DNA from: Alloascoidea hylecoeti
Taxonomy: Eukaryota
Assembly (NCBI GenBank): GCA_001600815.1
Contig: BCKZ01000008.1
Location: forward strand, 62,001-126,000
DNA: 64,000 nucleotides
Direction of reading: 5' to 3'
This document shows positions 5,521-63,999 of the stretch, piece after piece (the first letter of the stretch is position 1; the number at the start of each line of letters is the position of its first letter). The position numbers and the translations under genes are program-made. The notes below the pieces were generated by a model that saw nothing but the letters and a program-made list of their open reading frames with translations, was not told the origin of the DNA and did not search any database.

Positions 5521-7160
5521 ATGAGTAATCGACAAACACCTCCTTTGGTTCATGATGCCATTGACTTAATTGGGGAGACCCCAATGGTCACCCTTAACAA
5601 AATCCCCCAATCTTTGGGTATTAAAGCTAAAGTTTGTAAGTATTATAATACTAGTTGACTTTGAATGTTTTTCATTATTAATATTCCATTAGTGGCCAAA
5701 TTAGAATATTTCAATGCCGGTGGATCTGTTAAAGATCGTATAGCTAAAAGAATGGTGGAAGAGGCCGAGAAATCAGGCAGGATCAAACCTGGTTATACAT
5801 TGATTGAGCCAACATCTGGTAATACGTAAGCATAATACAAATACAATTATTAATCCAACTTGACTCTAATACCAATTTTACATATAGCGGTATTGGACTT
5901 GCACTTCTTGGTGCAGTTAAAGGTTATAGAACCATTATTACCTTACCAGAGAAGATGTCAAATGAGAAAGTATCAGTTTTAAAAGCATTAGGAGCAGAAA
6001 TTGTTAGAACTCCAACAGAAGCTGCGTGGGATTCACCAGAATCTCATATTGGAGTTGCAAAAAGATTAGAAAAAGAAATTCCAAATGCTGTTATTCTTGA
6101 TCAATATAGTAATCCTGATAATCCATTAGCTCATGAATTTGGAACTGGTGAAGAAATTTGGAATCAAGCTGGTGGTAAAATTACTGCTTTTGTTGCTGGT
6201 GCAGGAACTGGTGGTACAATTACTGGTATTGCAAGAGCATTAAAGAAACATGATCCAAAAATTAAAATTGTTGGTGCTGATCCAAAGGGTTCCATTTTGG
6301 CAGTACCTGAATCATTAAATGATTCCGTTGAATCTTATAAAGTTGAAGGTATTGGTTATGATTTTATTCCAGATGTTTTAAGCCGTGATATTATTGATGA
6401 ATGGATTAAAACCGAAGATAGAGAATCTTTCTTATTAGCACGAAGATTAATTAGAGAAGAAGGATTATTGGTTGGAGGTAGTAGCGGTAGTGCTCTTGCT
6501 GCTGCATTACAGGTTGCAAAAGGATTAACTGAAGAAGATGTTGTTGTTGTCATTTTCCCAGATAGTTTAAGATCATATCTTAGTAAATTTGTAGATGATG
6601 ATTGGTTAAAGAATAATGGATTCTTTGATGAACAAACAATTTCTGAACAAAGTGAAAAAAAGACAAGATATAAAGGAGCAACAATTGCAGATTTAAATTT
6701 AAAACCTGTTGTTACAATTAAAACAAGTTCAAAACTTTCAGAAGCAATTAAAATTTTAAAAGATAATGGATTTGATCAATTACCTGTTTTAAATGATAAT
6801 CAAAAATTAGTTGGAATTGTTACATTGGGTAATTTACTTTCTTATATTTCAAGAGGTAGAGCCAAAGTTGAAGATCCTGTTGAATCAATTTTTATTGATT
6901 TTAGAAAATTACCTGATTTTGTTTCATCAAATGATTCAAATAATTTTGATTCAATTAAAACACCAAAGGCAACTAATCAAAGAAAGAGAACATTTGCCGA
7001 AATTACTGTTGAAACTCCATTATCTGCTTTAAATCGTTTCTTTGAACATAATTCTGCTGCTGTTGTTACAGAAAGAACTGGTGATTCTGTTAAACCTGTT
7101 CATGTTGTTACAAAAGTTGATCTTCTTTCATTTGTTGCTGCAAATGGAGGATTTGAATAA
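5521..7160 (+). CDS. CYS4: Cystathionine beta-synthase; exons 5521-5635, 5693-5825, 5888-7160
   Basis: Removing introns 5636-5692 (GTAAGT..TAG) and 5826-5887 (GTAAGC..TAG) gives [30 protein letters not shown] (PLP lysine)..EPTSGNTGIGLA in frame with the 5955-7160 ORF. That ORF has GAGTGGT and a C-terminal CBS-domain pair. Confidence 0.95.
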
Positions 7161-17971: not shown

Positions 17972-19178
17972 TGTTTTCAATTTCATAGTAGGATATTGAA
18001 TTATACAAAGGGAAGCTAACTTTTTCGAATTTTCATTCGCTGATCGTAATTTGGTGATTTAATTAAACCCATGTTCATCACCTATATCTCATAATAATCA
18101 TTCTTATAGTGAAATTCCAAAACACAGACTTTACTCACTATTTCATCTGAAATCATAAATTTAATGAAAGATGAGATACTCATTATAATATCGAATCTTT
18201 AATGTGTTTGAAAGAATAGTAATATATGGATAAAGGTATGTAACTGTAAATATGGAATAGATGTTGTTTATAGCTATAATATTAAAGTCAATGAAGTATT
18301 TCGTTAATGGACCAATATAATGCCTTCTCTTACTGCTTGTGTTTCGACCCAAAGATTTATAACTTATACAATGAGACTTTTCTACTCGGGGATTTATTAA
18401 GAACCTTCTTTCACTGAGGAGAGTTTAAAGAGGAATTAACTCAATGGCCGTAGCATTCAAAATATATAGGCGCTTCGCAAAAGTTGATTGTCATGGCCAG
18501 CATTTAACACTCACTTTGCTTATTTTCACTCCCCTTTTTCTTCTCTCAATGGGCCACATGTTACAGGCAACTTAATAGTCCCTCTGTCACATCTGTTTTT
18601 AATTGAATTGAGGTACTGAAGAGGAGGTGCACTCAGTTCATTACATGAGATGAGTTCAATGCCTGAAAAAATATACTTCTTTAATTTTGATATGTATATG
18701 TGCAGTCAAAGTCTAAAGTTAGGCTTCTTATCGAGTTTCCACGCCAAATATTATAACCAGATGCACATGCATATTAATTAGAGATGATACATCTGATAAG
18801 AAATGATCAAAATCTACAAGGATCACTTTTTTTTTTTTCTTTATTTTTTATTTTTTATTTTTTTTCATTTCCGATCTGCTTCCTCAGATAAAATCCTTGA
18901 TAATATTGGGTCTTTAGATCATTTAAATTCTGTAATTATTGGTTATTTCAACCGTGTTTGTGTTTGCGGGATGGCCGACGCATAAATAATAATAATTATA
19001 TAAGCATCTACCTTCTAGATTAGAACCTTTTTATCCCTTAATTATAAAATTGAATGTAAACTTAAAGAATAATATTGCTATCTATAAAATATAAGATAAA
19101 ATAACTCATCACAGCTGAATTATTGATAAATTTATATTTATATATTTACAGGTTAAAAGCTTAATCTAAATTCAAACA

Positions 19179-20294
19179 ATGTCTTCTTCCAAGAATTTTA
19201 ACATTCCCAAAACACAAAAAGTGATCAGATCATCGAACTATGGCCCCAATTTTGAGTTAAGAATTGATCATTACTACCCCGTTCCCGTTCCATTATCGAC
19301 ACAGGTTTTAGTTAAGTTGAGTTATACAGGAGTTTGCCATTCTGATTGGTCGGTATTAACAGGGGAGTGGGGATATGAACCAACTACTACCATCCCTGGA
19401 CATGAAGGTGTCGGAAGAGTAGTGCAGCTTGGGTCTGAGGTACCGAGCTCTGAGGCCTATATTGGAATGAAGGTTGGAGTTGCCTTAGTATCTAACCCAT
19501 GTGGAAGTTGCGAGAGTTGTCTGCAAAATGATGGTGAAGTTTTATGTCGAAAAACAAACAGTTCAACGAATTATGGATATTACGGAGAATTCAGAGACGG
19601 CACCTGGCAGCAATATGTAGTTGTTGAAAAAAATTATATCATTCCTGTACCAGAAGAATGTCCAGATGAATTGGTCGGGCCTGCTTTATGTGGAGGAGTT
19701 ACTGTTTATAAAGGCATCAAAAAGTCTGGTTTAAAAGCAGGTGAATGGCTTGTAATCCCAGGATGCGGTGGTGGTTTGGGATCCTTTGGAATTCAATTCG
19801 CAGTAGCTCGTGGATTACGTGTTATTGGAATAGATAATGGTTTAAAAAAAGATGTTTGCGAAAAGTTGGGGGTTGAACACTTCATTGACTTTACAAAGGT
19901 AAAGGATATCCCAAAAGAAATCCACAAGATTACAAGTATTGGAGCACATGGAGTTGTTGTTCTTGCTCCAATTAGTAAAATATATAATGAGGCATCAGAT
20001 TATTTAAGAGAACAGGGTACAATGGTATGTATTGGAATTCCTCCCTCGGAGGTTAAATTGTCGATATCCCTTGCTACAATCATTGAAAAGTGTTTGAACA
20101 TCAAAGGCTCATTGGTTGGTACAAGATCAGATATAATTGAAGCTCTGGATTTCGTTGCTCGTGGAAAAGTTACCCCTGTAGTCACAGTTTATCCAATGGA
20201 AGCTGCAAAGGAAGTACTAAACTTAATGAATTCAGGAAAACTTCATGGGAGAGGTGTACTTAAACTACTTGACAACAATGAAGCTAAATTATAA
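19179..20294 (+). CDS. Zn-dependent medium-chain alcohol dehydrogenase with C-terminal PTS1 (AKL)
   Basis: GVCHSD, GHEGVG, structural-Zn CGSCESC..C, LCGGVTVYK and GCGGGLG motifs; ends -EAKL. Confidence 0.9.
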   Translation: MSSSKNFNIPKTQKVIRSSNYGPNFELRIDHYYPVPVPLSTQVLVKLSYTGVCHSDWSVLTGEWGYEPTTTIPGHEGVGRVVQLGSEVPSSEAYIGMKVGVALVSNPCGSCESCLQNDGEVLCRKTNSSTNYGYYGEFRDGTWQQYVVVEKNYIIPVPEECPDELVGPALCGGVTVYKGIKKSGLKAGEWLVIPGCGGGLGSFGIQFAVARGLRVIGIDNGLKKDVCEKLGVEHFIDFTKVKDIPKEIHKITSIGAHGVVVLAPISKIYNEASDYLREQGTMVCIGIPPSEVKLSISLATIIEKCLNIKGSLVGTRSDIIEALDFVARGKVTPVVTVYPMEAAKEVLNLMNSGKLHGRGVLKLLDNNEAKL

Positions 20295-20454
20295 ACTGCG
20301 TATCAAAGCAATTACATGTTTAATGTTCATAATTATAAGTGTATTACTTAGAAATTTGGCTGTGATGAGATCATATCTCTATAGCTAACTATAAATTAGT
20401 CTATAATTTTAGTTATTGTACACTGTACAGACAAAAACATTATTAATATTTGCG

Positions 20455-20580
20455 GTACGAATGTTTGCAAAATCGATGTTAGCTTTTATGCATAAACCCA
20501 AAACAGTAATATGCACTCCTTCCAGGAACACCAAATACACCAAGATCTTAGGATTCTACCCTCTTAATATATCCACCTAT
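20455..20580 (+). mobile_element. Possible decayed L1-type reverse transcriptase fragment (late RT motifs)
   Basis: Translates as FAKSMLAFMHKPKTVI...YTKILGFY, resembling the non-LTR RT motifs GxxINxxKT..KYLG. Hand match only. Confidence 0.35.
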
Positions 20581-20739
20581 CGTATTTTCGCATGCAATTT
20601 AGGGCAGACTTAGCTCTATGACAGATTAGCTGTATGCGATTCAGATCTGCAGCACATGGCACTGGTTATTGTCATTCTCCATGGCTTTGTGTAGGTATCC
20701 ATCTCCTTTTGTGCTCATTTTCGGTATTTTGCACTATTG

Positions 20740-20820
20740 TTTTTTTTTTAACTTTTCATATATTTTCCAATTAAATTATATAACTAGAAATTATGTAAAT
20801 TCTGAGGAAATCTCTACTAT
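20740..20820 (-). mobile_element. Poly(A)-ended retroelement 3' end, copy 1
   Basis: The minus strand reads ATAGTAGAGATTTCCTCAGAATTTACATA..TTTAATTGGAAAATATATGAAAAGTT then A10. Clearly homologous to 23231-23327 (+). Confidence 0.65.
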
Positions 20821-20922
20821 TTATAGTGAAATAAAAACCTCTTTTTATATTCTTCTTATTTTTGTGTATTCTTGACACTCTTCTTTCTTCTCTTCTTATG
20901 AACCTAGACAACCTTAAAAGTA

Positions 20923-21360
20923 TTTTTTTTTTTTTATTAGATATTTTTAGTTTTTAGATATTAGAATCCCCTTATTAACTCATTTAATATTTGTGGTGTC
21001 CCTGCAAATCTAATATCTTTTCTTAGCTCTAGTGCCTTTTTGATAAATGCCCCATTTTTTTCTATATTGTTTTCTTTTGTATATTTAATTTATGATCAAT
21101 AATTTGATCCCAATTCTTTCTCTTCCTAACATAATCTTCTTTAGTATTCTTATTGTTGAGCAATCTTCAAATAGATGTAATATGTTGTCTTTACCTTGTT
21201 GAAATAAACTACAAATATCAGATTTTTGCCACTATTGTTTTGCATTTTTATTATGATGTAGCATATGAGTAACACATCCCAAGCAGAGCAAATGCATCTA
21301 TTGTGTCTCCTCAGGGTGTTCCAATTTTCATCTTTTAGTTCCGGAATTAACTGCATCTTT
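20923..21360 (-). mobile_element. 5'-truncated L1-clade non-LTR retrotransposon relic (ORF2 C-terminal zinc finger plus poly(A))
   Basis: The minus strand gives ENWNTLRRH..AWDVL, then ICSLFQQGKDNILHLFEDC (21216-21160; Cx2C..HLF..C-type finger with one Cys mutated TGT>TTT), then ..ELRKDIRF..IRGF* (stop 20963-20961). AATAAA then runs into A13 (20935-20923). The 5' boundary is approximate. Confidence 0.65.
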
Positions 21361-21413
21361 TTTTCTAAGAGGCTAGTGGATAGAATTGGTCTGGACCCAT
21401 TTGAAATGTATTA

Positions 21414-21487
21414 GGGCGTCTGGTGTAGTTGGTTATCACATTCGCTTAGCATGCGAGAGGTCCCCGGTTCGATTCCGGTGTCGTCCA
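21414..21487 (+). tRNA. tRNA-Ala (AGC)
   Basis: Cloverleaf GGGCGTC..GTCGTCCA with the G3:U70 Ala identity pair, anticodon loop TTAGCAT, TTCGATT T-loop and a downstream T-run terminator. Confidence 0.93.
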
Positions 21488-21749
21488 TTTTATATTTTTG
21501 GCCCCACGTGGATTGCATCTCCGAAATCCTCCTCTGTGGGCGGATTAGTTAAATCTTGTATCGGTCACAAATCGAAGCCTGCAGTAGTCGGTCCGATTTT
21601 CCCTTTTTTCTTAAAAAGCACGTGTATAAAATTGGATTTTGTAAAAATATACCAAAAATAATAAATATAAATTAATTATATGCATACTAATTTGTAAGAT
21701 GATAAAAAGAAATGAGAGAATATATTTGAATCAGAAAAAATAGTATATA

Positions 21750-22740
21750 TTAACCTTTTTCATTAATTGAGTTTTATTAACTAAAATTATCAAGTGGTAT
21801 ATTAATTATAAACTTTTATATATATGCACATATTTAAATACTATATTCTTAACCAAAAAATTGTGAGATAAAAAGAACCTAATATTCAGGCAAAAATTCC
21901 TACTACAATTGTAATAGGTTTACTCTTTCTTGAGTAATGTTGTTTTGTATTAGAGCATCATTCTAACTATTAATCAACCTTTTACCCAATCCTTAATACT
22001 GTTTATAGTAATCATGTGTAAACATCTTTCCTCCTTTTCTTTTCCGTAGTATATAAGTGATTGGGACCAAAGCTTTAAAACGTCTCTTTCAATCATCTTG
22101 GACCACTGTGACTCAGATAAACTTATACCCTGTTGATAATACTGTCTGTGATATTTTTTAACCAAGAAAACTGTTACCGCTCTTAATAGCAATGCAATTC
22201 TCTACCCTTGTCTACCCTTATGTTGAAAGTTAATGAGGGATTTTACTTTAATTTCCCTTTCATTTAGTTCTACTATCCTTTTAGCCATTGTACCATATTT
22301 TCTTGGTAATTTCACATTTAAAAAAAACATGTTCAAGTGACAATTCCAACTTGTTAATAACAGCACGGACAAAGTTTGTCTTTAATATTGTTATAAAAGT
22401 GTAAGTATGAATTAATTAACGGAAAGGTTGAAAATTATTTTGCAATTGTACTTAATGAAAATTAGTTGGTGACTTTTAATAACATTCTTTTTGAATTCAT
22501 CACATTTTCAAAAGACAGAAGTTTCTGGTCTGTATATGATTGATCTACATTTGGTGTCTTGCAGCTGTATATAGACTAAACAAGTAGTATATTATATCTG
22601 CATCTCTATATATTGCATGCAAGTTTATACCGATTAGTGCCTGAGTTTTGATGGTGAGTTTGCTTCCCCGACAAGGAATTCGAAGGCTTCCCTTTAAAAA
22701 AGAATTAAATACCTGGACCTGTTCTTCAGGTTCAGCAATG
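21750..22740 (-). mobile_element. 5'-truncated L1-clade non-LTR retrotransposon relic
   Basis: The minus strand gives KLCPCC, a frameshift, then LSLEHVFFKCEITKKIW (about 22380-22294), a typical L1 ORF2 C-terminal finger. GSLRIP..TQAL lies upstream (about 22695-22635) and the decayed ORF continues to 21974. The sequence near 21800-21750 weakly resembles the poly(A)-ended repeat. Boundaries approximate. Confidence 0.7.
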
Positions 22741-22824
22741 GAAGCCCTTTTTTTCTCTCTTTCAAGTGGCCGGAAAGGCCCTATTTTTTCGGCCCAATTC
22801 GACATGGCCAGATTGATAAAAATA

Positions 22825-22896
22825 TGAGTGGTGGGGGAATCGAACACCCGTCACTTGCTTGGAAGGCAGGTATGATAACCACTACACTAACCACCC
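22825..22896 (-). tRNA. tRNA-Gly (TCC)
   Basis: The minus strand reads GGGTGGTTAGTGTAGTGGTTATCATACCTGCCTTCCAAGCAAGTGACGGGTGTTCGATTCCCCCACCACTCA, with anticodon loop CTTCCAA and a T5 terminator just downstream. Confidence 0.9.
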
Positions 22897-22917
22897 TTGA
22901 CTTTTTTTATTAAAAAA

Positions 22918-23218
22918 CGTTATCCTCTGTTTTTCGTGTCCTATCATTATGCTCTGCCGCTATGCCCTTATGCCTTTATGTCTAGCTGTATACTAATTAT
23001 GCCACATCTGTTATGTCACACACACACAACTCTAGGTGTTATCTTCTCACATTACTGTGAACAATGCTGATTCTACTCTATGATCATTCGTAATCTCATG
23101 TGTTTTATGTAACCCGGATTTCTCTTACAACTATATAAACTCCAGTCTTAGTCTTAGTTTTCTAATAGATTAATTGCTTAAATTTCTCTGGATCAAGCTC
23201 ACACTTTGTACCCTCACA
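22918..23218. mobile_element. Probable solo LTR about 22 bp upstream of tRNA-Gly
   Basis: About 300 bp, from CGTTAT (degenerate TGTTAT) to ..CTCACA, with an internal TATATAAA. Flanks AAAAA/TAAAA give an imperfect 5-bp TSD. The position fits Ty3-like targeting. Confidence 0.4.
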
Positions 23219-23230
23219 TAAAAGAATAAT

Positions 23231-23327
23231 ATAGTAGAGATTTCCTCAGCATTTACATAGTTGATAGTTAATAGTTATAGACTTTAATTGGAAATTATAT
23301 GAAAGGTTAAAAAATAAAAAATAAAAA
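23231..23327 (+). mobile_element. Poly(A)-ended retroelement 3' end, copy 2
   Basis: ATAGTAGAGATTTCCTCAGCATTTACATA..TTTAATTGGAAATTATATGAAAGGTT followed by an A-rich tail. Homologous to 20740-20820 (-). Confidence 0.65.
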
Positions 23328-23369
23328 TTCTGATATTAATAAGCGCTGATTGACATTAGTGCTTGTTAA

Positions 23370-23500
23370 AAAACTTTGGCAAAAATTTCAGAAGACCAGG
23401 TAATCTTGATGCAAGATAATGCTCTTATTTACAAAGTTGATGTTATCAACTTATCATGTTTTGATTCAAAGAGGAGGAAGTTGAAATGATGAAATGTCTT
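23370..23500 (+). mobile_element. Tc1/mariner transposase relic
   Basis: Translates LAKISEDQVILMQDNALIYK (Tc1 second-D motif, QDNA), then after a frameshift EEEVEMMKC. Confidence 0.55.
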
Positions 23501-23560
23501 TAAATTAAACATAGTATTTTTTTTACACAGTTGTCGGGATTAATTTTCAAATTATTCAGT

Positions 23561-23708
23561 TCATCACCCCGAAGTGAGTAATTAATTTAAGAAATTTTAT
23601 TAGTAGTATTGTAGTTGAGTACCCTCGGATCGGTCATACCGAAGTAAGTAATTAAGCAAGTTTATTAACATTGAGTACACTCAGGTCGACGTCGGTCATA
23701 CCGAAGTT
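23561..23708 (+). repeat. Three imperfect direct repeats about 60-70 bp apart, core TCGGTCATACCGAAGT
   Basis: CCGAAGT(G/A)AGTAATTAA occurs at about 23568 and 23639. TTGAGTAC..TCGGTCATACCGAAGT occurs at about 23614-23645 and 23671-23707. Confidence 0.7.
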
Positions 23709-24772
23709 TAGACTTCTACAGGTTCTATTATATTTATGTAATTGTCGTTTAGTGTTCATCGTATACTCTTCACAGCGGCCCATAATTAGTGTTTGCTTGG
23801 AACAATATGCACATAATGTTAAACGAGCCGAAACTGTCATAATATAATGAGATAACCATTGTCTCAGATCTGGAAGCTTATCGAGTGTGACTGTGGACCA
23901 GCGTGTGGCACTGTGTGCAATTGAGCGTAATATGCATAATCAACTATCTAATAATAAAAAACTTGATCCAGAATATTAATGGTAAGTTGGTAACTTTAAT
24001 TCAGAACCACCAGAAACTTTCAGTTCACCTTCCAGATAAGATATCTTAGATCATAAAACCACTATATCCTTATTAAACATTATGAATATGTATTAATTAT
24101 ATTTTTCGTTAAAAATACCGAGTCTATGAACACGCAAAGAGAAGTACCAATTGAACCGTACAAGTAGACACCCCCGATTAAATAAAACGATTAATAGACT
24201 TTCCAAACTTGAAAGAATGTTTTACTAATATTATATCGCGATCGGTAGCTAGTCATCAGAAGACTTAAGGTTATCAACACACTTTAGATAAGAAATTGCA
24301 ATATGATTAATTATCATGACGATATGCCCATATACCTATAATTCATTTAAAAAAAAGAATCGCATATTTTGAATATATGTTGATAAAGTCATTCAATTTT
24401 AGAGATCATTAATTAATCTGGCTTTTTCAAGATTTTACTAGCACTAGATCTAGAGATAGTATACGTAGGATAAAAAGCTAACCAATCTAGATATTAATAG
24501 GCCTATATATAATAATAGAAAGCGCTTAGATAAAATATGAGGGAAAAAAATAATTTCATTGAATTATGAAAGTATATCAATGCATCAATTATGATTGCAA
24601 TATTCTATTATCGCGCAATTGTTTGTTCCATGTATAATATTATATATATATGACTATATATCAAAATATATAAAAACTAGAGACATTCCTATTCCTCCGA
24701 GAAATGGAACGTCGTTGACCTGCTTCTCAAAATAACACACTTTTGCACTATTGCTGTAATCATCAGAATATA

Positions 24773-26359
24773 ATGTCAGAATCTAATGTTATAGAAGAAG
24801 ATGTTGCAAATCTTGCGGAACTAGGTTATAAGCAAGAGTTGATAAGAACTTTCTCATTACTATCAATGGTTGGGTTTTGTTTTGCCATTTTAACTTGCTG
24901 GTCTGTTATCGGTGCAACTCTTTCGTCAACTATGAATAATGGAGGTCCAGTAGTATTATTTTGGGGTTTTATAGGCGTTTGCTTTTTTTCAATATTTGTT
25001 GTTTTTTCAATGGCTGATATATGCAGTTCTTATCCAGTGAGTGGGGGTCAATATTCCTGGGTTGCATTATTATCTAGAGATACAAAATGGGGAAGAGGGT
25101 TATCTTATATCACTGGGTGGATTCAACTAGCTGGAATAGTGTGTTTTGGGTCTACGGCATTATACATAGTGGGGATATTTATAGAAGGTATGATTGTATT
25201 TAACAGTAATGATGAATCATTCGTTTATAAAGACTGGCATGTTGTATTATATGCTTGGGCATTATGTTTACTGGATTTAATTTTTAATCTTTTCGTAACA
25301 AAATGGTTACCAATGATAAACAAGGTTGCATTATGGTGCTCGATTGGTGGATTTCTTATAAGTATAATTGTTGTATTGGCCGTTTCTTCCCCAAAACAAA
25401 GTGCTCAATTCGTCTTTACAGAGTACACAAGTACCGGAGGTTGGTCAGATAAAGGAATGGTTATTATACTGGGAGTTCTTCAAAGTTCTTATGTCATGTG
25501 CGGTTATGATTCTCCAGCACATATGAGTGAAGAGCTACAATATGCCAGCAGAGATGCACCTCGAGCAATGGTTTTGAGCGTGATGATTGGCGCAGTCACC
25601 GGAATTTTATTCATTATTGCGTTAATGTTTTCAGTTCAAGATTTAAATGCCGTAGCTTCAACTGTTACTAATGTCTCACTTCTTGAAGTTTACCACCAAG
25701 CCACAAATAATAAAACAGCTTCAATATGCTTGGCATTTCTGGTGGCTTTAAGTACTGCATTTGCTTCTAACTCGTTAATTTCAGAGGCATCAAGATCGAT
25801 TTATGCTTTCGCAAGAGATGGGGCATTTCCACAATTTTTGAACAAATATTTGTGTAGGATCAGCACCACTTTACACGTTCCGGTATATGGTTTACTAATG
25901 ACGGCATTCTTCCAGTGTGTTTTTATTGCTATTTTATTTGGTTCAAGTACTGCATTTTCCACAGTTATGTCAATCGGAACTATTGGTCTATATATCTCAT
26001 ATCTTATACCTATTATTGTAGTAATGTTTAGACGGCCATATCAGAAACATGGATATTACTCATTGAGTAAGATGGTCGGTACAAAAGCCTGTTTTGTTTG
26101 CAATTTACTAGCAGTTATTTACTTAACATTTTGCTGTGTTATGTTTTTCTTTCCAACTATTATCCCTGTCACAGGAAATAATATGAATTATGCTTGTGTT
26201 GCCTTTGGAATAACTTGTATATTTGCAATTACATCATGGATTTTAGGAGGATCAAAAACATATATGAAAGTTTCAAGAAAAACTATTATTTGCATTGGGA
26301 CTGAAGTTGAAGATATCCAATATTCAAGTGATGAAGGAAAACTAGAAAAAGGTTCTTGA
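24773..26359 (+). CDS. APC-superfamily amino acid/choline/GABA permease (Hnm1/Uga4 type)
   Basis: LGYKQELIRTFS, GGPVVLFWG, YPVSGGQYSW, GYDSPAHMSEE and AFARDGAFP motifs, with about 12 hydrophobic segments. First ATG is at 24773 (the track starts at a TTG). GATAAG sites at 24035 and 24287. Confidence 0.9.
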   Translation: MSESNVIEEDVANLAELGYKQELIRTFSLLSMVGFCFAILTCWSVIGATLSSTMNNGGPVVLFWGFIGVCFFSIFVVFSMADICSSYPVSGGQYSWVALLSRDTKWGRGLSYITGWIQLAGIVCFGSTALYIVGIFIEGMIVFNSNDESFVYKDWHVVLYAWALCLLDLIFNLFVTKWLPMINKVALWCSIGGFLISIIVVLAVSSPKQSAQFVFTEYTSTGGWSDKGMVIILGVLQSSYVMCGYDSPAHMSEELQYASRDAPRAMVLSVMIGAVTGILFIIALMFSVQDLNAVASTVTNVSLLEVYHQATNNKTASICLAFLVALSTAFASNSLISEASRSIYAFARDGAFPQFLNKYLCRISTTLHVPVYGLLMTAFFQCVFIAILFGSSTAFSTVMSIGTIGLYISYLIPIIVVMFRRPYQKHGYYSLSKMVGTKACFVCNLLAVIYLTFCCVMFFFPTIIPVTGNNMNYACVAFGITCIFAITSWILGGSKTYMKVSRKTIICIGTEVEDIQYSSDEGKLEKGS

Positions 26360-38310: not shown

Positions 38311-39417
38311 ATGATTTATAACACTTATATCAATACTGCTTTATTGTTGGCTTCTGTATCCGTTGCTGCTCCAGCTGGTGATTTACTTGCAAGAGACGAC
38401 TTACAAGTCGCCGAAGGAAACAACAAAGCCTTAACGATTCCTCCAATTTATGTCTCTTCTGGTGTGGTTTCTACTGTCCCTAATAATGTCGTTGGTGGTA
38501 ATAATTTCGCTACACAATCTGCTCCTGGATCTCAATCAGGTGCATCTTACACTGCTCCTTCTCATACTTCGGCACCTCATGCCTCGAGTTCAGCTTCAGC
38601 TTCATCTGGATCTTTCTCAGCTTCAGCTTCTGTCTCTGCTAGTGTCTCAGGTTCTGCCTCAGGCTCAGGTTCAGGTTCTGCCTCTGATGATTATGCCGCC
38701 TTAACTACCGGTGCTGAGAAACCATTAACAATTCCACCTGTTTATGTATCATCGGGTTCTTCCGTTGTTGCATCATCAGTATCAAATGGTGTCGTTGGTG
38801 GTAATGATTACTGGTCTCAAAGTTCATACGGTCCCGTTTCAGGCGCTTCTTATGGTGTTTCAGCTTCAGCCTCTAGTTCTGCAAACTCATCTGCCTCTGC
38901 TGCATCTTCTTCAATTACTTCAAGTGCCAGTGATGATTATGCGGCTTTAACAACAGGTGCTGAAAAACCATTAACAATTCCACCTGTTTATGTATCATCA
39001 GGTTCATCTGTTATTGCATCATCAGTATCAAATGGTGTTGTTGGTGGTAATGATTACTGGTCTCAAAGCTCATACGGACCGGTTTCTGGTGTTACATACG
39101 TTACAACTTCCGGATCTGCAAGTGCAAGCTCATCTGCCTCAGCTGCATCTGCGTCAATAACATCCTCCACAACCGATGATTACGCCGCATTAACAACAGG
39201 TGCTGAAAAACCATTAACAATTCCACCTGTTTATGTATCATCAGGCTCATCTGTTATTGCATCATCAGTATCAAATGGTGTTGTTGGTGGTAATGATTAC
39301 TGGTCTCAAAGCTCATATGGACCAGTTTCTGGTGTTACTTATGTTACAACTACATCATCTGAACCTTATTATACATCTTCTGGAAATTCATCTACTCTAA
39401 CCACTTCTTTCCTTTAA
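38311..39417 (+). CDS. Secreted Ser/Ala-rich protein with four internal ~55-aa repeats (cell-surface candidate)
   Basis: Signal peptide and pro-segment ending LLAR. One diverged and three near-identical units DDYAALTTGAEKPLTIPPVYVSSGSSV(V/I)ASSVSNGVVGGNDYWSQSSYGPVSG, separated by Ser/Ala linkers. Confidence 0.85.
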   Translation: MIYNTYINTALLLASVSVAAPAGDLLARDDLQVAEGNNKALTIPPIYVSSGVVSTVPNNVVGGNNFATQSAPGSQSGASYTAPSHTSAPHASSSASASSGSFSASASVSASVSGSASGSGSGSASDDYAALTTGAEKPLTIPPVYVSSGSSVVASSVSNGVVGGNDYWSQSSYGPVSGASYGVSASASSSANSSASAASSSITSSASDDYAALTTGAEKPLTIPPVYVSSGSSVIASSVSNGVVGGNDYWSQSSYGPVSGVTYVTTSGSASASSSASAASASITSSTTDDYAALTTGAEKPLTIPPVYVSSGSSVIASSVSNGVVGGNDYWSQSSYGPVSGVTYVTTTSSEPYYTSSGNSSTLTTSFL

Positions 39418-42184: not shown

Positions 42185-44398
42185 CCGTCAGGTCTATAGA
42201 TACTAGGATTCCGGACACAAAATAATTGATATTTTCAACCACAAATAATTCAACATCAGATTCAGATTGATTTTGAACTTGAGTACGATTTTTTAACCAA
42301 CTAATATAAATTAAATTTAATACTATCACTAAAATCTATTTAATCTCGTAATTCTGATAATGATTTTTCAATATACACATTTTGTGTTTTCTGTTGTGGA
42401 GTAGGATTTTTTCTCCAATTTAGAGTATTTAGCTTACTAGAGTCAGTAGCACCAGTCTTTTCAACATAATTTTCGGTATCTATTATTATCTGGAAAGTTT
42501 TTATTCGGGTATCATTGGATGAGTCAAAGTTCATATGATATATTAGAATTAGCTTTATGGTACCTACTGTCGTAAGGCGTGAGAAATAGGGTGGTTTGAG
42601 GAATTATGACCAGCCATCCAAAAACGCGATGATCGGGAGCATATAAAACGTCGTCTTTCAATCGCCACCAAACCTCCATCATAACTCCAAATGGCTCGTA
42701 CAAGATCTGTGCAGAATGAGAATGAGCGTCAGAATATGTTAGTCAATGCTGCTATCGATTATAAGAGAAAACACATGAATCAGTCGTTCCGGAAGGTTTC
42801 TAAAATATTCTCTGTTCCAAGATCAACTTTAAACGATCGTTTCAATGGTTCATCATCACACAAGGATTCCCACATTTCTCAAATGGTTCTAACTCCCCTT
42901 GAGGAGCAGGAGCTTGTTCGGAGGCTGTTTTTTTTTCTCGAAAAATGGGTGTGCCGCTAATTTAAAACGGTTTCGTGAGAGGGTAGATAATCTAGTATAC
43001 GAACGCGTTCAAAAAGATCCTTTAAAATTACCCACCAAAAACAAGACAACGTCGCATTTCTGTTCGCGTAATTATCATATGCCTTTTATGTTCCGACATA
43101 CCACCTTGTCATACAAAAAGATGCGTAAATTAGATGCCTATAGGTTTCCAAGTATATCCGCGAATGGTATACACTGCTCCATCAGGCTATCAAAACAACA
43201 CCAGAATCTCATATTTGGAACTTGGATGAAACTAGCACCCAGCTTGGAGTCACCGATGAAGGGGAAAAGCGATTTGTGTCCTACTCAAAAGAAGTTTGCT
43301 CAAATTAAATTCCCGAGAGCTGAGCTCATCTCGTCTGTCGAATGCGTATGTGCCGATGGTTCTAGGACTGCTCCACTCATTATATTTTAAAAAAAAGCAG
43401 GATGATGATGTCTCACCTGCTTGGGTACCTGATAATGAAGATAGGACATTAAAGAATTGGGTATTTACATGTTCCAGTTCTGGTTATATAAATGGTGATT
43501 TGATATTGAGATGGTTACACGAATTATTTTTACCCCATATTGCGTATGAAGAAGGACACATTATTTTATTAGATGGCCATTCGAGTCATATCTCCTTTCA
43601 ACTAGTCATGGAATTCATTAAATATGGCATTCGACTCTTTATTTTGCCAGCCCACATTAGTCAGTCAACGCAGGTGTTGGACGTCTCTTGCTTTGGTCCT
43701 CTTAAAAAAGTTGAAAAACATCTATGACGAAATACTAGTAGATAAACCCAACAATCATAGAGCACAAAAAAGAGAATTCGTTGAAATATATAAGAAGGCC
43801 AGATCTGATGCAATAACAGCTAGAAATATTCGTTCTGGTTATAAGGCAACCAGAATATACTCATTTGAGTCAGAGAAGATTATCGAAATTTGGAAAAAGT
43901 TTGGGTAGCAGAAAACGAGGAAGAAAATTTAATTTTATATGAAGATTTTGAGGGAGAATTAAAATTCGAAACGTTTGTGAACGAAGCTCGTGTAACGATG
44001 TTGGAAAGGCTGAAAATATATGATATGTCGGAGGATGAATTTCGTGCTTGGAAGAATTAGCTTAGGGGTGCAAACAGGCTTTATTATCAAGTACATCTAC
44101 CAATATTCTTGAAGAAAGCACTCATAACACATAATTCCCCTGAGATAACGAAGAGAAATGCTTGTCGTGAGATTGGTGCTGCTGAGCTGAATACACCAAG
44201 TCGGAGAAAAAATCCCACTCCACAACAGAAAACACAAAAAGTGTATATTGAAAAATCATTATCAGAATTACAAGATTAAATAGATTTCAGTGATAGTATT
44301 AAATTTAATTTATATTAGTTTTTGGTTAAGAAAATGGTGGTTGAACATATCAAATATGTTGAATCCTAGTACCGTCCGGTATCTACAGACCTTGACGG
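42185..44398 (+). mobile_element. pogo/Fot1-family DNA transposon, frameshifted transposase (42691 to about 44279), long TIRs
   Basis: HTH start (SFRKVSKIFSVPRSTLNDR), WNLDET, ILLDGHSSH and LPAHISQSTQVLDVSCFGPLK spread over several frames. Ends are TA|CCGTCA..TGACGG|TA, with inverted homology between about 42185-42457 and 44171-44398. Confidence 0.9.
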
Positions 44399-54964: not shown

Positions 54965-57900
54965 TCAAGATTGTTGTTGTTCATTGCCTCTACCTCTATA
55001 ACTACCGTTGCCTCTACGACCACCACGACCTCTTCCACGATTACCATGTTCTCCTCTAGTTCTAGTGAAGTGTCCTTTAGTGTTACTAGAATTTGGAGTT
55101 CCATTACGGGGTCCAGTAGGTGGTACTCTTTTACCACCTTCTTGTTGCTCAGACGGTGATGTTGAATCTTCACTATTTAAGACCGATAAACCACGAATTC
55201 CAAGAAGTGCTTTCACTTCTGCTGATGCATTCTCATTTCCTGAAGGTGTTCTCTTATGAACCTGTGGCTCAGTCTGTTGTTGTTGATGTGGCTGCAACGG
55301 TGCTGGTTGATTTTGCGCAGTCGGCATAAATTGCTGAGGCTGTGGGACAAAGCCAGGGAATGGGAAGGGTGGCATTGGCATACCAGGTACAAAATTTGGA
55401 GGGGGAGGGAAAGGCATATTCATAGGTAAAGGCATTGGCATAGGAGGTCCACCACCATACTGACTGAAGAAATTAGCAAATGCTTGTTGAGGATTACCAT
55501 TACTATTAGAAATGGGTGTTGATCCTGGATTAGCTTGTGGAGGCTCATTAGGTTGTGATTGACTATTTGGACTACCATTCAAAAGTGATAATAAAAATTT
55601 ACTATTCTTTTCTTCAACTTTGTCTTGAGTTGAATCAACAGGAGCTTTAATAGTTTCAGTAGTCTCCTCCTTATTAACTTCAGTAGGTTTTGTGTCTTCT
55701 TGTTGTGTTTTTTTCAACCATTTTTTAGCATTTACAGGAGTTGTTGTTCCCTCTACTTTCTTATTCTGTGATAATAGTGGTGGGGAAGACTCGTTGATAT
55801 TTTTCCCTCTTTTCCAAACATTATTAACTGGTACATTCGAATATCTTTGTTGATTATTATTTCTATTTGATTGGTCTTGTCTATCATCATACCGTTTTTT
55901 AGAAGCAGCTGAATGATAAACCAATTGCTTACTCGAAATATTTAACAACATCGAAGTTTCAACATTTAATCCTCTATTAGTCTTCAAAGTACCAGCCAAA
56001 GTATTGCTACCTAATAACGGAGCATCAAATATAACATCAACAGTAACGTTTTTCATACTACTGTGAATAGCAACGACGGTTCCTTTACTAAACAAAGCAA
56101 CTTTACCAGATTCTTGAACATATGAAACACGATCTCCCAATTGGAATCTTTGAGTTGACAATAAATTTGAAGAAACGGATGGATTTAAAATAGCATCTCT
56201 TGGTACTTTATGTAAGGTTTTTTCAACAACAGGTTCATTATTAATAACAGATTGTTTTAAAAATTGAATTGATAAATTTTCAATTTTTTTAATAGAATCT
56301 TGTGATAAACCTTCAGATTCTAAACTAACCAATGTATAACCTTTTGATTTAAAATTTGATAACCATTCTTTAATTTTTTTAATTTCATTATCAACTTCAT
56401 TTCTATCCATACCATTAAAAATTTCAGACGCTCTTGGAATATTAGCATGCATATTTTTAATAATACCTTGAAATAATTCAGGGAATTCTTGCATATAAGT
56501 ATAAATTAAATCAATAGCTGTTTTACTAAATTGCCATCCACGTTCATGACGTTGAGTATAACCTAATGCCTTTAATTTTTTAGATTCAAATTTTAAATCA
56601 AGTCCAACATTACGTTTCTTACCACCATGTTCAATCATATATGTTGAAGTAATACGTGATAAAACCAATGGATGCAACTTCAAAATTTTGGAAACTTCAA
56701 AAGATGGGTAATATCTTGCATTTCTTCGTTCCAAAGCAGCAATAGTTTTTCCAAACGTTGGAGTCAAATATTCTTTAACATCTTTAAGTTCTACTTCTTC
56801 TTGTGACTTGATTGATAACGTAACAGATTCTTTAGGTTCATGACCAACAACTTCTGCAGGTTCTCCATAAGCGAAATCACCCAAAAATACAACTTTAGAA
56901 TGTAGTTTAAATTCTTCTTCAACAGGAGCAGGTCTTCTTTCTTTGTACCTAAGATCTACATTAGCAACTTTTTTAACAACCAGTTGCAAAGGATAAATCT
57001 CTTCAACATCAGTATTGAAATCTTTTCTATACCATCCATCTCTAGAACGTAATAAACCTCTTAAAGGATTAACATGAACCAAAATATCAATTGAACCAAC
57101 CTGAATACCTCTATTTTTAGCAAAAGTAGCAGAAAGATTTTGTACTACTTTATCATATCTAAAATCATATTTTTCATGAGAATCAGCAATAATTTGTCGA
57201 TTATTAAGACTAAACCTTGTATCATAAGTTGAAATCCCAATAACTTTTGCTTCTCTTAAATATGGCCAATTGATATAAACTTTTCTACCCAAAAATTTTA
57301 AAATTTCATCTAATTCTGAATATTTATATAAATTTTCAATTTTTAAAATTCTTGATTCCGATCTTGTCGGTTGTTGAAATATAACAATTCCAGCTAATTC
57401 TAAATCTGATTTAAAAGAAATTGTTTTTAAAGTTGGAAAACCAGCAAATAAATATTTCCCACTTTTCGAACCTTTAATTAAACCATTTTCATCTTTTTCC
57501 TTTGGTTCTTTACTTTGTAATTGAGGATCTCTATCACCAGGCATTATAAAAGTTGTTTCAATACAATGACAATCTTCAATATCATCAAGAACACCAGGTA
57601 TACTTGATTTAATATATCTATTAACTTGAGGATTATAAATAAATTGAATAGCTTCACCAAATGAATTTCTTTTCTTTTCATCATCAGTTAATAATTTATC
57701 AACAGGTTTCATTGCTTCTAATAATCTAACTTCATCAACAAATTGAATTTTCACAACAGCTTCCCAATCAGCAGTTTTCCCATTCATATCTAATTCAACA
57801 TCATTTGGATAAAAATCAATAATTGGAGAATTTTGATCAGTCATTAATGCTCTATAAGGTAAAGGTAATAAAGATCTTGATCTTGCAGGTAAAACAGCCA

Positions 57901-59857
57901 TTAATTGTTCAAAAGGTTTAAAAGGTTTACCAATTTTAAAATCAATAATTTTTCCAAGACCTTTTTTAATATCTGAAATTCTTGGAGAATAATGATATTT
58001 ATAAAACCATGGCCATGATTGAACACCTTTATAATAATAAAATAAAACCCATTGTAATCCTTCAATATAATTTTCAGTTAAATTTTTAATTTCTTCTTCA
58101 TTATTTAAATGAAAACCAAATTTTTCAATATAATATCCATCTCTCCATTTATCAAATTTTTCATTATAAATTTTTTTCTTTTCTTCTTCATCTTCTGGAT
58201 TTAATGTTTTTGTTGCTATATATTTTTTTAAATTTTTCTTTAAAAGATTTACAGTTTCTTGTGATGTTATTGCATCATGATCCATTATTGCAATATAAGA
58301 ATCTGATGAATGAACTAAAATAAGATTAAATTCAGATGCAATTTTCTTGAGAAATTGTAAATTATCACCAATTATTTTACTTGGAATTTCAATTTGATCT
58401 TCTTCGTCATCATCCTCATCATCATCATCATTATCATTATCATTATCAACAATCTTTTTTGGAAATTTTTCAAGTTCTTGTAAAATAAAAGAATTTAAAA
58501 ATTGAAGTATTCTCTTTTCACCTCTTTCTAAAATTTTTTTTTTATTCCCAATACTAATTGTTTGTAATTCTTGATTAAACCAATCAACGTCTAAAGCATC
58601 ACCACCTTCAAAGATTCTTCTTTCGAAAATTTCTAATTCATCTAACCATATTTTAAATCTTTCCATATTAATAACACCATTTTCATTTAAGTAACCATCA
58701 AGATTTCCTTTAATAAAAGCATTTTTAAAAGTTTGTATTAAAACAGGAAATGCACCTTTATTTATATGTAAATCAGGTAAATTCGGTAAAAAATCATTCC
58801 CAATAACATACATTATAAAAATAAAATCATCCAATAAATTTTCAAAATTATATTTAAATTTACCTTCAAATTCAATTGCATCTTTTAAATCATCAAATTC
58901 AAGTTGTAAATATTCCCTTACTAAACTTAAATGAAGTAAATAGAAATTTTCATCTTCTAAAGTTTTTCTTTTTTGTTTATCACCTCGTCTACCAAAAACA
59001 ACTTCTTCTCTTAATAAAGCAAAATGAGGAATATGAGTAACAAGACCTAACATAATCAAATCAGCATCTAAACCATAAATACAATGTCGTAAATTAACGT
59101 CATAATCATCTCTTCCAATGCTACCACGAATATATTCCATAATTTTATGTTCTCCTTCACCAGGTACTTCATGACCAGATAAAACAATTTCTATTCCTTG
59201 CCAATTCTTATCATTCATAACTTTAGCATTAATAAAATACTTCAAATGAATACTGACTTTCTTCATAAATTCCGTACCGGGAGTAATTGAATTCGTATCA
59301 AAAGGAGGTTCTTTAGGAATTTCAATTCCTTCTCTTTCAGCTTTTTCTAAAGCTTTTTCAGCATCTAGTGCTGTTCTAAAACGACGTGAACGTTGTTGAT
59401 TCATTTTAGCTCTCGGAGCAACACCATCAATTGCCATGAAAAAAGTCTTTTTTGGTTTTATTAATGTAAATAAATGATCAATATATGCAAATATTGCAGT
59501 CATTATTTGAGATTCGGTTAATCGTTCCATCGCATCATCATTCCCATGTGTACAATTATCTAAAAAATCCCAAAATCAAAATCAAAAATCAAAATCGAAA
59601 TCAATAGTTCAACCGTTAACAGATCATCCAACATTATATACCTTTCTTGTTTTTTTCAATACATACGAAGAATTGAATTCATATCAAGATATAAATTATC
59701 AAACCTATAAAACAAATAATCAATTAGCCATCACATCATAATCATGAACGTCTCTATATCCCAAAAAAACGTACTCCGGGATCCTATCGTCCTGAATCAA
59801 ATCACTGATCAACGGCCATCTCTCTGAAATAAACCTGAAAAACTTTGGAATTCCCAT
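54965..59857 (-). CDS. XRN1: 5'-3' exoribonuclease 1; exons 59857-59775, 59704-59667, 59559-54965
   Basis: Splicing introns 59774-59705 (GTACGT..TAG) and 59666-59560 (GTATGT..TAG) gives MGIPKFFRFISERWP..EFDNLYLDMNSILHNCTH. Further motifs: AIDGVAPRAKMNQQRSRRF, GEGEHKI, YGLDADLIMLGL, GNDFLP. Long Xrn1-type C-terminus. Confidence 0.97.
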
Positions 59858-60034
59858 TTTGTATGTATTTTATTTATCTACTTGAATATTATGTTATTTT
59901 AAGATGTGAGCGAAAGTAAGAAACTCTAGTGATTAATTTTACCCTTACCATTCTGAAATATACCTTTTAGTCATAGGTTACCCTGCCTCACAATATAGAA
60001 AATGATAAGGACTACAATACAATAATCCTTCAAA

Positions 60035-61930: not shown

Positions 61931-63176
61931 ATATTCGCTAGAAAGAACCTAATATAGCGGAACACCCTACAGTCATATAGAATTAATATGAGATTCATTT
62001 ATTACAAATGAAAATAAAAATATAAAAAGGAGAAGTTTGTATGCTCAGGTCCATTCGTGATCTAATCTAATCTACAGGTAGTGCTTGACAAAGTTGCTCC
62101 ATATCGTATATTGAACTTCTTATAAATGGCGATGATAGGCATATATATGAGTATGGATGGCCTGAGTCTTTGGGAATTATTGAAGATTTAGGATTTATGA
62201 TTTTGTGGGCCAACCCCACCCAGCAACTTATAAGCTAATAATTACCCGCAATTAATGTAATTATAATGAAAGGTATATCATTGAACTTGTAAAATTTGAA
62301 CTATATGCATATGTATTAGGTAGCCAAAGCTTAAAACATAAAACTCTATGCATGAGAGTTGCCCACAATCCTATTCAATATTCCTTTAAGTATGATTAGG
62401 AGGAATCGAACTGCTTATTGAATTTATAATCCTAGTATGAACGATGCAGTCTTGTGCAATCTTGCTACTTTAGGCTTCAAAAACAATAACCCTTAATATT
62501 TAAGGAACTTATACCATCTCAAACGAATATCCTTTCCCCATTTGAATTATCTTACAACATAAAAAAAACTAACACTAATATATTTACTATTATGATTTTT
62601 TGATACATATTATTTACAATCTTTAAGTATAAGCTTATAATACAATTATAATAATGATTATACTGTTACATGATAGTTTTACAGTTGATAAGTTGCAATT
62701 GTTTGTAATAAAGAATTTTCTTATATTGATAAATGTAAAAAATATAAATAAAAAAAATTTAGATATAAATATAATAAAAAAAAGAAAGAAATCGATAAGA
62801 TAAGATAAGATAAAAATAAGATAAACTTAAGTTATTGCAATTATGAAAATCATCATCATTATTTGACTTATATCTTCATTTCATTTCATTATATAATATC
62901 GATATTAAAAACAGCGTATATCAATATTAAAACATGTCAAGGTAAAGTTAAAAAAATCATAATAATTACTTCAATTTTATTCAATTCAATATCAGAAAAA
63001 ATTTTATAAAATAAAATAATTGTTTGATTTCTTTTGACTTATGGATCCAAAGGTAAATAATATTAATAATAATAAAAAAACAACTAAACATGCAAACTAA
63101 ACAATTCAAAAATCAACATCTCATAGTAACATAAAAATAAAAAGAAAAATCATGATTCAATTGAATGTTAAAAGAG

Positions 63177-63290
63177 GAAATAAAGAAATAAAGAAATAAA
63201 AAAATAAAGAAATAAAGAAATAAAGAAAAAGAAATAAAGAAATAAAAAAATAAATAAAAATAAATAAAAATAAATACAAAAATAAAAAGA
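63177..63290 (+). repeat. (AAAGAAAT)n / A-rich tandem repeat
   Basis: Tandem 8-nt AAAGAAAT units grading into AAAAAT-type units. Confidence 0.85.
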
Positions 63291-63531
63291 AAATATTTAA
63301 AGGTATTTGATAATCATTTTTTTCTTAATTTAACAATTTAACCAAAACATTTACCTTCACCTTTACTTTTACATTTACCAATAAAAGTATCATTATACCC
63401 CATCATGAAATTTCATATCATTTTCATTTCCATAAGATAAGATATCAAAAGCCAGATATTTACCTAACCAACCAATCATAAAATTTAAAATATAAAAGAA
63501 GAACAAATACTATAAAATTAAATCTTCATCT

Positions 63532-63999
63532 TTATGTTGATTTTGATGATGATTTTTTAAATCTTAAAGAAATTCTTTCTGATAATTTAGAAGCACCAAC
63601 ACCAGCATTTTTCAATAAAATTTTTTCATTTTTTTGAAAATTATTTAAAGAAATTTGAAATTTTTTAGATAACTTATCATTTAATTTATCAATTTTTAAA
63701 TAATTTTTTTTTAAATTTAATTTAATTTTTTGTTTTAAAATTTTATTTTTTTCTGAAATTTTTATAATATTTGATGATAAAAATTCTTTTCTTTTTGATA
63801 ATTTTTGTTTTAAAAATTCTTTCCTTTTTGAAATTTTTAATGATAGAAATTTTGAATCATTTGATAATTTATTATATTTATTTTTAAAATTTTCTTTTTT
63901 AAATTGTAAATTTTCATTATTTATTTTATCTTTTAAGAAAACATGAACTGATTTCTTAAACTTTCGTAATTTCTTTAATTTTAAATCTTTATAATCATT
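63532..63999 (-). CDS. 3' end of a Lys/Asn-rich ORF that begins beyond the window
   Basis: About 155 uninterrupted codons (NDYKDLKLKK..KNAGVGASKLSERISLRFKKSSSKST*) in very AT-rich DNA. It has no ATG inside the window and is missing from the track. Confidence 0.65.
   Translation of the reverse strand, partial: NDYKDLKLKKLRKFKKSVHVFLKDKINNENLQFKKENFKNKYNKLSNDSKFLSLKISKRKEFLKQKLSKRKEFLSSNIIKISEKNKILKQKIKLNLKKNYLKIDKLNDKLSKKFQISLNNFQKNEKILLKNAGVGASKLSERISLRFKKSSSKST

Follow-up and report, generated by a model that had tools for sequence, protein, structure and literature searches.

Relics of non-LTR retrotransposons beside two tRNA genes of the yeast Alloascoidea hylecoeti point to possible TRE5-like insertion upstream of tRNA genes

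A stretch of 64,000 nt from the genome of the budding yeast Alloascoidea hylecoeti (GenBank assembly GCA_001600815.1, contig BCKZ01000008.1, positions 62,001 to 126,000; called the window in the following, with position 1 at its first base) contains four relics of non-LTR (long terminal repeat) retrotransposons, also called long interspersed nuclear elements (LINEs). All four lie beside the two tRNA genes of the window, each with its 5' end facing a tRNA gene, and within this window the observation is real and non-random. On balance, we lean slightly to the reading that an abundant LINE family exists, or existed until recently, in this yeast, with integration directed to tRNA genes and a placement like that of the TRE5 elements of Dictyostelium. 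As judged from few loci, the preferred site would lie upstream of the mature tRNA, about 55-65 nt from its 5' end, and the element would be antisense to the tRNA gene and face it with its own 5' end. The broader proposal is that budding-yeast LINEs home to tRNA genes via the RNA polymerase III (Pol III) complex, about 55-65 nt upstream in antisense and possibly with a second family downstream in sense orientation, and that this habit was invented independently outside Amoebozoa. For this proposal we regard the chances as evenly balanced. The positions of the relics and of the tRNA genes are given in Table 1.

Table 1. Retrotransposon relics and tRNA genes of the window. Depths are summed contig depths of the bins named, as multiples of single-copy depth in four public runs; they are orders of magnitude, not copy numbers.
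Feature	Position	Strand	Description	Depth bins	Summed depth
Relic A1	20740-~20905	-	High-copy, A-tailed 3' tail module	20753-20903	~230-440x
Relic A2	20923-21357	-	5'-truncated LINE 3' end: decayed C-terminal coding sequence of open reading frame 2 (ORF2), short 3' untranslated region (UTR), A13 tail	20904-21356	~18-42x
A2 zinc knuckle	21160-21213	-	From the alignment of A2 with family fragments		
Spacer, A2 5' end to tRNA-Ala	21358-21413		56 nt		
tRNA-Ala(AGC)	21414-21487	+	ARAGORN; Rfam RF00005, 46.2 bits		
Relic B (minimum extent)	21974-22470	-	C-terminus of ORF2 with a frameshift, from another LINE family of low copy number	21961-22715	~1-4x
tRNA-Gly(UCC)	22825-22896	-	ARAGORN; Rfam RF00005, 51.4 bits		
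Relic C	23229-23327	+	5'-truncated copy of the A1 tail module; decayed A-rich tail	23169-23319	~6-16x

Relic A2 is the body piece upstream of tRNA-Ala and has the opposite orientation to this gene. Its tail is a run of 13 A (T13 on the plus strand, 20923-20935), and its decayed coding sequence for the C-terminus of ORF2 spans 20964-21356, where it is tiled in tblastn by ten ORF fragments of the same family (P0001-P0008, P0011 and P0012). Four of these fragments, P0001-P0004, were matches of the 48-aa open piece of A2 (21088-21231) in a protein collection (source 'ncbi') and were 83-90% identical to it. A profile of these matches, searched against 1.84 billion representatives, yielded 11 hits, i.e., its own inputs P0001-P0003, the six new fragments P0005-P0008, P0011 and P0012, and two false positives, the SpaA-repeat protein P0009 and P0010, which were rejected as family members. 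When hidden Markov models (HMMs) of the family were run over 2600 ORFs of the window, A2 was matched with E=5.6e-28. The consensus of the family contains a zinc knuckle of the form CxxC-x10-H-x5-C, and the A2 copy itself has F in place of the second C. With the Pfam family zf-RVT (PF13966) the A2 knuckle reached 15.2 bits (E=0.036) and the relative P0001 20.3 bits (E=9.3e-4), both under the gathering score of 27.5 bits, and in a protein-language-model Atlas the relative P0006 was placed among zf-RVT clusters (0.96; 25 of 30 hits). A stretch of 33 nt, which codes for KWWGFIKETYK in the relatives, is absent from A2 at 21320-21322. Two contigs of one of the public runs (X4, see below) match A2 up to 21357 and then carry sequence unlike this locus; the 5' end of A2 was therefore placed at this base, 56 nt upstream of tRNA-Ala. 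The junction is adjoined by an A7 run (minus strand, 21358-21366).

On the outer side of A2, and on the same strand, lies the tail module A1. It ends in A10 (T10 on the plus strand, 20740-20749), and its likeness to a high-copy family extends to about 20901-20905 according to the contig tables. A further copy, P0013, was found via the ORF antisense over A1; it was 95% identical, and its flank was uninformative. Relic C matches 20735-20824 in reverse with 82% identity (self-BLAST and alignment) and was also detected by nhmmer (E=8e-9). It is truncated at about 23229, keeps about 97 nt of the tail module, and ends in an A-rich tail (23304-23327). Again, the orientation is opposite to that of the neighboring tRNA gene, tRNA-Gly, and the relic lies 332 nt upstream of this gene. 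The original prediction had described A1 as a minus-strand 3' fragment with poly(A) at 20740-20820, A2 as a relic at 20923 to about 21360 that ends about 50 bp from the tRNA, and C as a plus-strand, poly(A)-ended copy at 23231-23327 upstream of tRNA-Gly. All three relics were recovered, and C is indeed such a copy, starting at about 23229; A1 is longer than had been described, and the distance of A2 from the tRNA had to be corrected to 56 nt.

Some additional candidates for tail copies were dismissed. A third copy at 21630-21673 (70% identity over 44 nt; BLAST E=0.093) was not seen by nhmmer and had single-copy depth. The T12 run at 18827-18838 is not a retroposon tail but belongs to a long, T-rich promoter tract that precedes the dehydrogenase gene, and weak, AT-rich BLAST matches near 63059-63930 (58-66% identity) received no confirmation from nhmmer. 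Five metagenome loci with a conserved 18-mer of the tail had neither a tRNA nor BLAST similarity to the region, and were taken as chance matches.

The relation between A1 and A2 was judged from single-copy contigs of other loci, which link A1-type directly to A2-type sequence (joints 20861>20949, 20840>20953 and 20905>20944). The A1 module was therefore read as the distal 3' UTR of the LINE family of A2, with derivatives by deletion or template switching. In further joints, the 5' part of the A2-type sequence (from 21209-21323 onward) is fused to the final 50-80 nt of the tail (20787>21209, 20820>21245 and 20803>21323). Each of these was present in one single-copy contig with a different junction, and they may represent internal deletions, template switches of the reverse transcriptase (RT), or short non-autonomous derivatives. 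At the locus in the window, A1 and A2 are either two stacked insertions, as originally predicted, or one element of 620 nt with an internal A run.

Four public runs contain the stretch, two from one sample (X1 and X2), one from another study (X4) and one from a wood-decay metagenome (X3). The contigs of the runs were placed on 20300-24800 at a likeness of at least 80%, and the depth of the single-copy flanks was 19.9-26.5 in X1, 57.4-59.1 in X2, 10.1-10.7 in X3 and 5.0-5.6 in X4. The summed depth was highest over A1, followed by A2, C and B (Table 1). Over A2 it was uneven, with about 4-8x at 20948-21087 and 30-50x at the knuckle. Beyond the start of the A tail of A1 (20740-20742), 13-23 contigs per run go into unrelated sequence (agreement about 0.5), and the same is true for 4-5 contigs per run at C beyond 23314 (agreement again about 0.5). 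The disagreeing flanks past the A tails indicate that the repeat is dispersed and that its 3' boundary is genuine.

The relics are 3' ends of LINEs, as seen from their A tails, their variable 5' truncation and the zf-RVT-type knuckle at the C-terminus. Poly(A) or A-rich 3' ends with flanks that differ among loci were found for A1, A2 and C. The point of truncation varies from copy to copy: 23229 in C, about 20905 in A1, 21357 in A2, and the W before the knuckle in P0002. The knuckle is also a trait of the L1 clade; all Pfam scores for it, including 15.5 bits for relic B, stayed below the gathering score, and the consensus restores the pattern CxxC..H....C. Membership in the L1 clade is a candidate label that comes from the zf-RVT-type knuckle.

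Exactly two tRNA genes were detected in the 64 kb, with concordant results of ARAGORN and Rfam, and they are convergent and lie inside a gene-free gap of 4.5 kb (20294-24773). That the truncated 5' end faces a tRNA gene in all four relics, as originally predicted, can be read directly from the sequence. The accompanying claim, that L1-type relics occur only within about 1 kb of the tRNA genes, was supported within this window by the Pfam, HMM, nhmmer and tblastn searches. Two of the 15 ORFs near the tRNA genes matched zf-RVT, RVT_1 or Exo_endo_phos in the Pfam scan, and none of 150 other non-genic ORFs of at least 45 aa did so at E<=0.1. The total number of non-genic stop-to-stop ORFs of this size is 184; the remaining 34 comprise 7 near the tRNA genes, which were scanned with the near-tRNA set, as well as 2 over tRNA-Ala and 25 beyond position 60322, which were never in the Pfam scan. 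In the 64 kb, the family HMMs (2600 ORFs), nhmmer with the four relics and tblastn with 11 family fragments detected no copy other than A1, A2 and C. Self-BLAST, nhmmer and tblastn revealed just two loci of the A family, one for each tRNA gene, in each case on its upstream side and in antisense. If copies were placed randomly in the 31,989 non-genic bases, the probability that two of them lie at most 700 nt upstream and in antisense is about 5e-4, a value that was calculated post hoc.

A further, independent locus is represented by P0002, a database ORF fragment of 159 aa that matches the window over residues 96-143 only, that is, at the A2 knuckle (tblastn). Upstream of this match, its residues 48-77 include G-V-E-P-G, and the opposite strand reads as a B box. 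In a strict test, the reverse complement of the degenerate back-translation must satisfy a tRNA frame. P0002 passed this antisense test (B box 11/11, T stem 5/5, acceptor stem 7/7, T8, A14); none of ten other family fragments passed, and 56 of 2000 shuffled versions of P0002 did. Between the inferred tRNA 5' end and the beginning of the LINE match there are 56-67 nt, and the truncation point of this copy differs from that of A2. A similar distance together with different truncation points is the prediction of a fixed insertion site with random 5' truncation. In this small sample, A1, A2, C and P0002 all have a 5' end that faces a tRNA or a tRNA-like stretch, and the upstream distances are -56 (tRNA-Ala), about -56 to -67 (P0002) and -332 (tRNA-Gly). 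In addition, one contig that recurs in all four runs links tail-like sequence to first bases like those of tRNA-Ala (20774>21414); with a side of 22 letters and an unknown spacing, it is a weak hint.

A mechanism can be proposed that follows the precedent of TRE5-A, i.e., binding of ORF1p to TFIIIB and dependence on the B box. A protein of the element, ORF1p or ORF2p, would recognize the Pol III pre-initiation complex assembled at the tRNA gene, and the likely partner would be TFIIIB, because the junction at -56 is close to what we take to be the upstream edge of the TFIIIB footprint. The endonuclease would nick just outside the DNA covered by TFIIIB, on its upstream side, and target-primed reverse transcription would proceed away from the tRNA gene, which would leave the 5' end of the element facing the tRNA. 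Older copies would be pushed outward by repeated hits at one site, which could account for the outer tail module as well as for the position of C at -332. The 332 nt between tRNA-Gly and C (22897-23228) had about 2-3x single-copy depth in X1 and X2 and about 1x in X4, end in an A-rich dodecamer immediately before C, and may be a later retroposon insertion that shifted C outward. By eye, no solo LTR was seen in this interval, i.e., no TG..CA element with a matching duplication.

Several points weigh against insertion directed to tRNA genes. The sample consists of two tRNA loci and 2-3 insertion events, in a window that was chosen for the pattern. C is at -332 and not near -56; its outward shift is an inference, and the intervening DNA of about 1-3x depth had no family match in the Pfam and contig data. 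The tRNA reading of P0002 rests on back-translation (P about 0.03) and not on DNA, and a looser back-translation test was non-discriminating, as 36 of 200 shuffles reached the score of P0002. The abundance of the family was read from summed contig depths, which, as the tool warns, do not count copies. Target-site duplications (TSDs) were not recognizable by eye at A1, A2 or C. No intact element was present among 5.8 and 1.84 billion proteins, which contained only ORF fragments of 38-159 aa, and no RVT_1 or Exo_endo_phos match was found in the Pfam-scanned ORFs of the window. The missing RT and endonuclease are expected because the relics are 5'-truncated, and are compatible with LINE membership; as a consequence, no targeting protein can be named. 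The A-rich runs at the 5' junctions of A2, B and C indicate that there is some sequence preference, too. Of the geometry that had been likened to TRE5 and TRE3, the antisense placement upstream of a tRNA gene was seen at both loci, at a TRE5-like distance for A2 (-56) and at -332 for C, and the TRE3-like part consists of one relic with an undefined 5' end.

The relics could also have accumulated passively, by near-random insertion into AT-rich DNA and survival in gene-free gaps, so that proximity to the tRNA genes and orientation would be a coincidence or a retention bias. Such a pile-up, which would make the locus an ordinary graveyard of transposable elements (TEs), is supported by the fact that every relic lies in the single gap of 4.5 kb; in addition, it agrees with the low number of independent events, the post hoc recognition of the pattern, the position of C, the undefined start of B and the lack of recognizable TSDs. 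However, half of the window is non-genic, yet no copy was found elsewhere, and retention bias predicts neither the fixed orientation (4/4) nor the repeated distance of -56 at tRNA-Ala and -56 to -67 at P0002. TE insertions are tolerated elsewhere in the window, as is evident from a pogo/Tc1-type DNA transposon relic of about 2 kb at 42285-44338, which has survived at a distance of 19 kb from the tRNA genes. Its inverted terminal repeats measure about 150 nt (42285-42434 and 44185-44338, 91% identical), and its coding sequence is broken up over several frames, with an HTH_psq piece at 42685-42957 (E=4e-4) and a DDE_1 piece at 43260-43724 (E=7e-12). We thus consider a mere pile-up unlikely.

Another explanation would be targeting by sequence alone, as for Zorro3 of Candida albicans: the endonuclease would prefer oligo(A), the tRNA flanks would supply the tracts, and Pol III factors would not be involved. 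The A7 run next to A2, the A7 run near 22745-22760, where B may begin, and the A-rich dodecamer before C are in agreement with this explanation, and Zorro3 inserts into poly(A) tracts and has poly(A) on both flanks (PMC7175516). But such tracts are everywhere at 31% G+C. Non-genic DNA of the window contains 43 A/T runs of at least 7 nt, 35 of which are more than 1 kb away from a tRNA gene, and none of these 35 has a copy. Furthermore, Zorro3 is reported to be without a known regional preference in the excerpted text of that source (PMC7175516), and a preference for A tracts can coexist with targeting to tRNA genes. An explanation by oligo(A) preference in place of Pol III factors therefore appears improbable to us.

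Relic B differs from the upstream relics in several respects. It lies downstream of tRNA-Gly and is co-oriented with it. Its three-frame translation gives ...DKLCPCC in one frame and ELSLEHVFFKCEITKKIW in the next, and the remnant of a zf-RVT-type knuckle (CPCC ... ELSLEHVFFKC, 22314-22371) is thus split by a frameshift. The second half of the knuckle matched Pfam zf-RVT with E=0.027 at profile positions 70-85 of 85, and the Atlas placed B among zf-RVT clusters (0.95; 29 of 30 hits). The reading frame stops at 21974, and a clear A tail is lacking. The 5' end can be anywhere from 22470 to about 22745, which corresponds to 80-355 nt from the 3' end of tRNA-Gly; the A7 run mentioned above lies there in a purine-rich stretch. 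The co-oriented relic that had been predicted about 85 bp downstream of tRNA-Gly was therefore found with its zf-RVT remnant and its orientation, and the precise start could not be upheld. B is invisible to the HMM of the A2 family and thus cannot be called a member of the same family. Its C-terminal ORF of 75 aa had no relatives among longer proteins, while proteins of near its own length were not searched. Just 3' of the stop codon of B, a stretch at 21860-21960 has about 4x single-copy depth and a near-identical continuation in other contigs; it probably represents either the B family's 3' UTR or a different small repeat.

B, as a separate and older relic, may record a second family with TRE3-like behavior, and this is the weakest part of the proposal. 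The alternative is that direction to tRNA genes is confined to the upstream family. B would then be an old, unrelated LINE fragment that came to its place by chance, and no TRE3-like family would exist. The low depth, the negative result with the A2-family HMM, the lack of relatives and of a clear A tail, and the undefined 5' end all fit this alternative, and B is also 370-490 nt away from tRNA-Ala, on the downstream side and oppositely oriented, which makes its relation to either tRNA ambiguous. On the other hand, its orientation and the possible distance of 80 nt fit TRE3, which inserts 40-150 nt downstream of tRNA genes and is oriented as they are (PMC5911963). We give the alternative, with B there by chance, an even probability. 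B differs from TRE3 in being one relic of low copy number, whose 5' end is undefined and for which neither a clear A tail nor an external B box could be shown.

The relics upstream of the tRNA genes resemble TRE5-A, TRE5-B and TRE5-C of Dictyostelium discoideum as well as NLTR-B of Polysphondylium pallidum, which also have an oligo(A) tail, a zinc finger at the C-terminus of ORF2 and an antisense position tens of bases upstream of tRNA genes. TRE5 elements are found 40-54 nt and NLTR-B 39-64 nt upstream, both in opposite orientation, and targeting of TRE5-A was shown experimentally, including the interaction of ORF1p with TFIIIB and the dependence on the B box (PMC5911963). In contrast to these amoebozoan elements, the host is a budding yeast, one copy is at -332, and targeting would be concluded from few loci, the likeness being one of build and placement. 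In the excerpted text of a review from 2018, the tabulated non-LTR elements that target tRNA genes are TRE5, TRE3, NLTR-A and NLTR-B, which are all dictyostelid, and insertion downstream of tRNA genes is stated for dictyostelid genomes only (PMC5911963). According to excerpts of another publication, TRE-like elements were not identified in other amoebozoans that were examined (PMC5006619). In the full-text literature searched, which covers few subscription journals, no account of a fungal non-LTR element associated with tRNA genes came up.

Zorro3 shares with the relics that it is a yeast LINE with an A tail and with A-rich sequence at the 5' junction, and ORF2 of Zorro carries a Cys-rich C-terminus. 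The sites are different, namely poly(A) tracts for Zorro3 and subtelomeres for Zorro1/2 (PMC7175516) versus tRNA flanks for the relics, and the family described here is apparently far more abundant. Ylli of Yarrowia lipolytica is an L1-type yeast LINE that resembles the relics in its many 5'-truncated copies, its poly(A) tails and the lack of recognizable TSDs; the counts for strain CLIB89 are 17 full-length elements, 7 sequences of more than 1 kb, and 104 fragments between 30 bp and 1 kb in length, and the excerpted text makes no mention of a tRNA association (PMC5014426). Ty1 and Ty3 of Saccharomyces cerevisiae are also retroelements of a budding yeast that use the upstream region of Pol III genes as a safe site. 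However, they are LTR elements with an integrase-based mechanism and insert in either orientation, Ty3 at the start site of transcription and Ty1 within a range of up to about 1 kb, whereas the relics are LINEs, which use target-primed reverse transcription.

If insertion directed to tRNA genes is true, it would be a further case of convergent safe-haven targeting by a yeast LINE, a habit that has so far been listed for dictyostelids only, and it would have arisen in the same fungal subphylum in which Ty1 and Ty3 evolved Pol III targeting by integrase. Target-primed reverse transcription would then take place where the Pol III contacts of the Ty1 and Ty3 integrases are known in detail. The positioning of a LINE endonuclease by TFIIIB or TFIIIC would become open to yeast genetics, and the design of site-directed, LINE-based insertion tools would be affected, too.

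The window is AT-rich (31% G+C) and is a chromosome segment of the budding-yeast type with ordinary genes. Domain and family searches identified genes for an aspartyl protease, a pyridoxal phosphate (PLP) enzyme with CBS domains, a CstF2-like protein, UBR1, an ADH-type dehydrogenase, an amino-acid permease, a mitochondrial carrier, a Fungal_trans regulator, CorA and XRN1. Besides tRNA, no Rfam family reached its gathering score in the 64 kb. Both tRNA genes are followed by terminators, a T-rich one at 21488-21499 right after tRNA-Ala and T5 on the minus strand after tRNA-Gly. Directly past each terminator lies a G+C-rich island. The island after tRNA-Ala (21500-21512) contains a CACGTG palindrome, and the one after tRNA-Gly (22775-22811) contains short, hairpin-like repeats flanked by GGCC and a weak B-box-like string. 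The B-box-like strings just 3' of both tRNA genes were considered as external B boxes and were too weak to call.

Two genes of the window have a separate short 5' exon, which indicates spliceosomal introns near their 5' ends. These are the gene of the PLP enzyme with CBS domains (5665-5826 / 5955-7160; PALP match with E=2.3e-11) and the XRN1 gene (59723-59869 / 54965-59530; XRN_N match with E=7.8e-4). In addition, an ORF of 368 aa (38311-39417) without a Pfam family contains, at 38679-39351, tandemly repeated units of about 246 nt that are 87-89% identical to each other.

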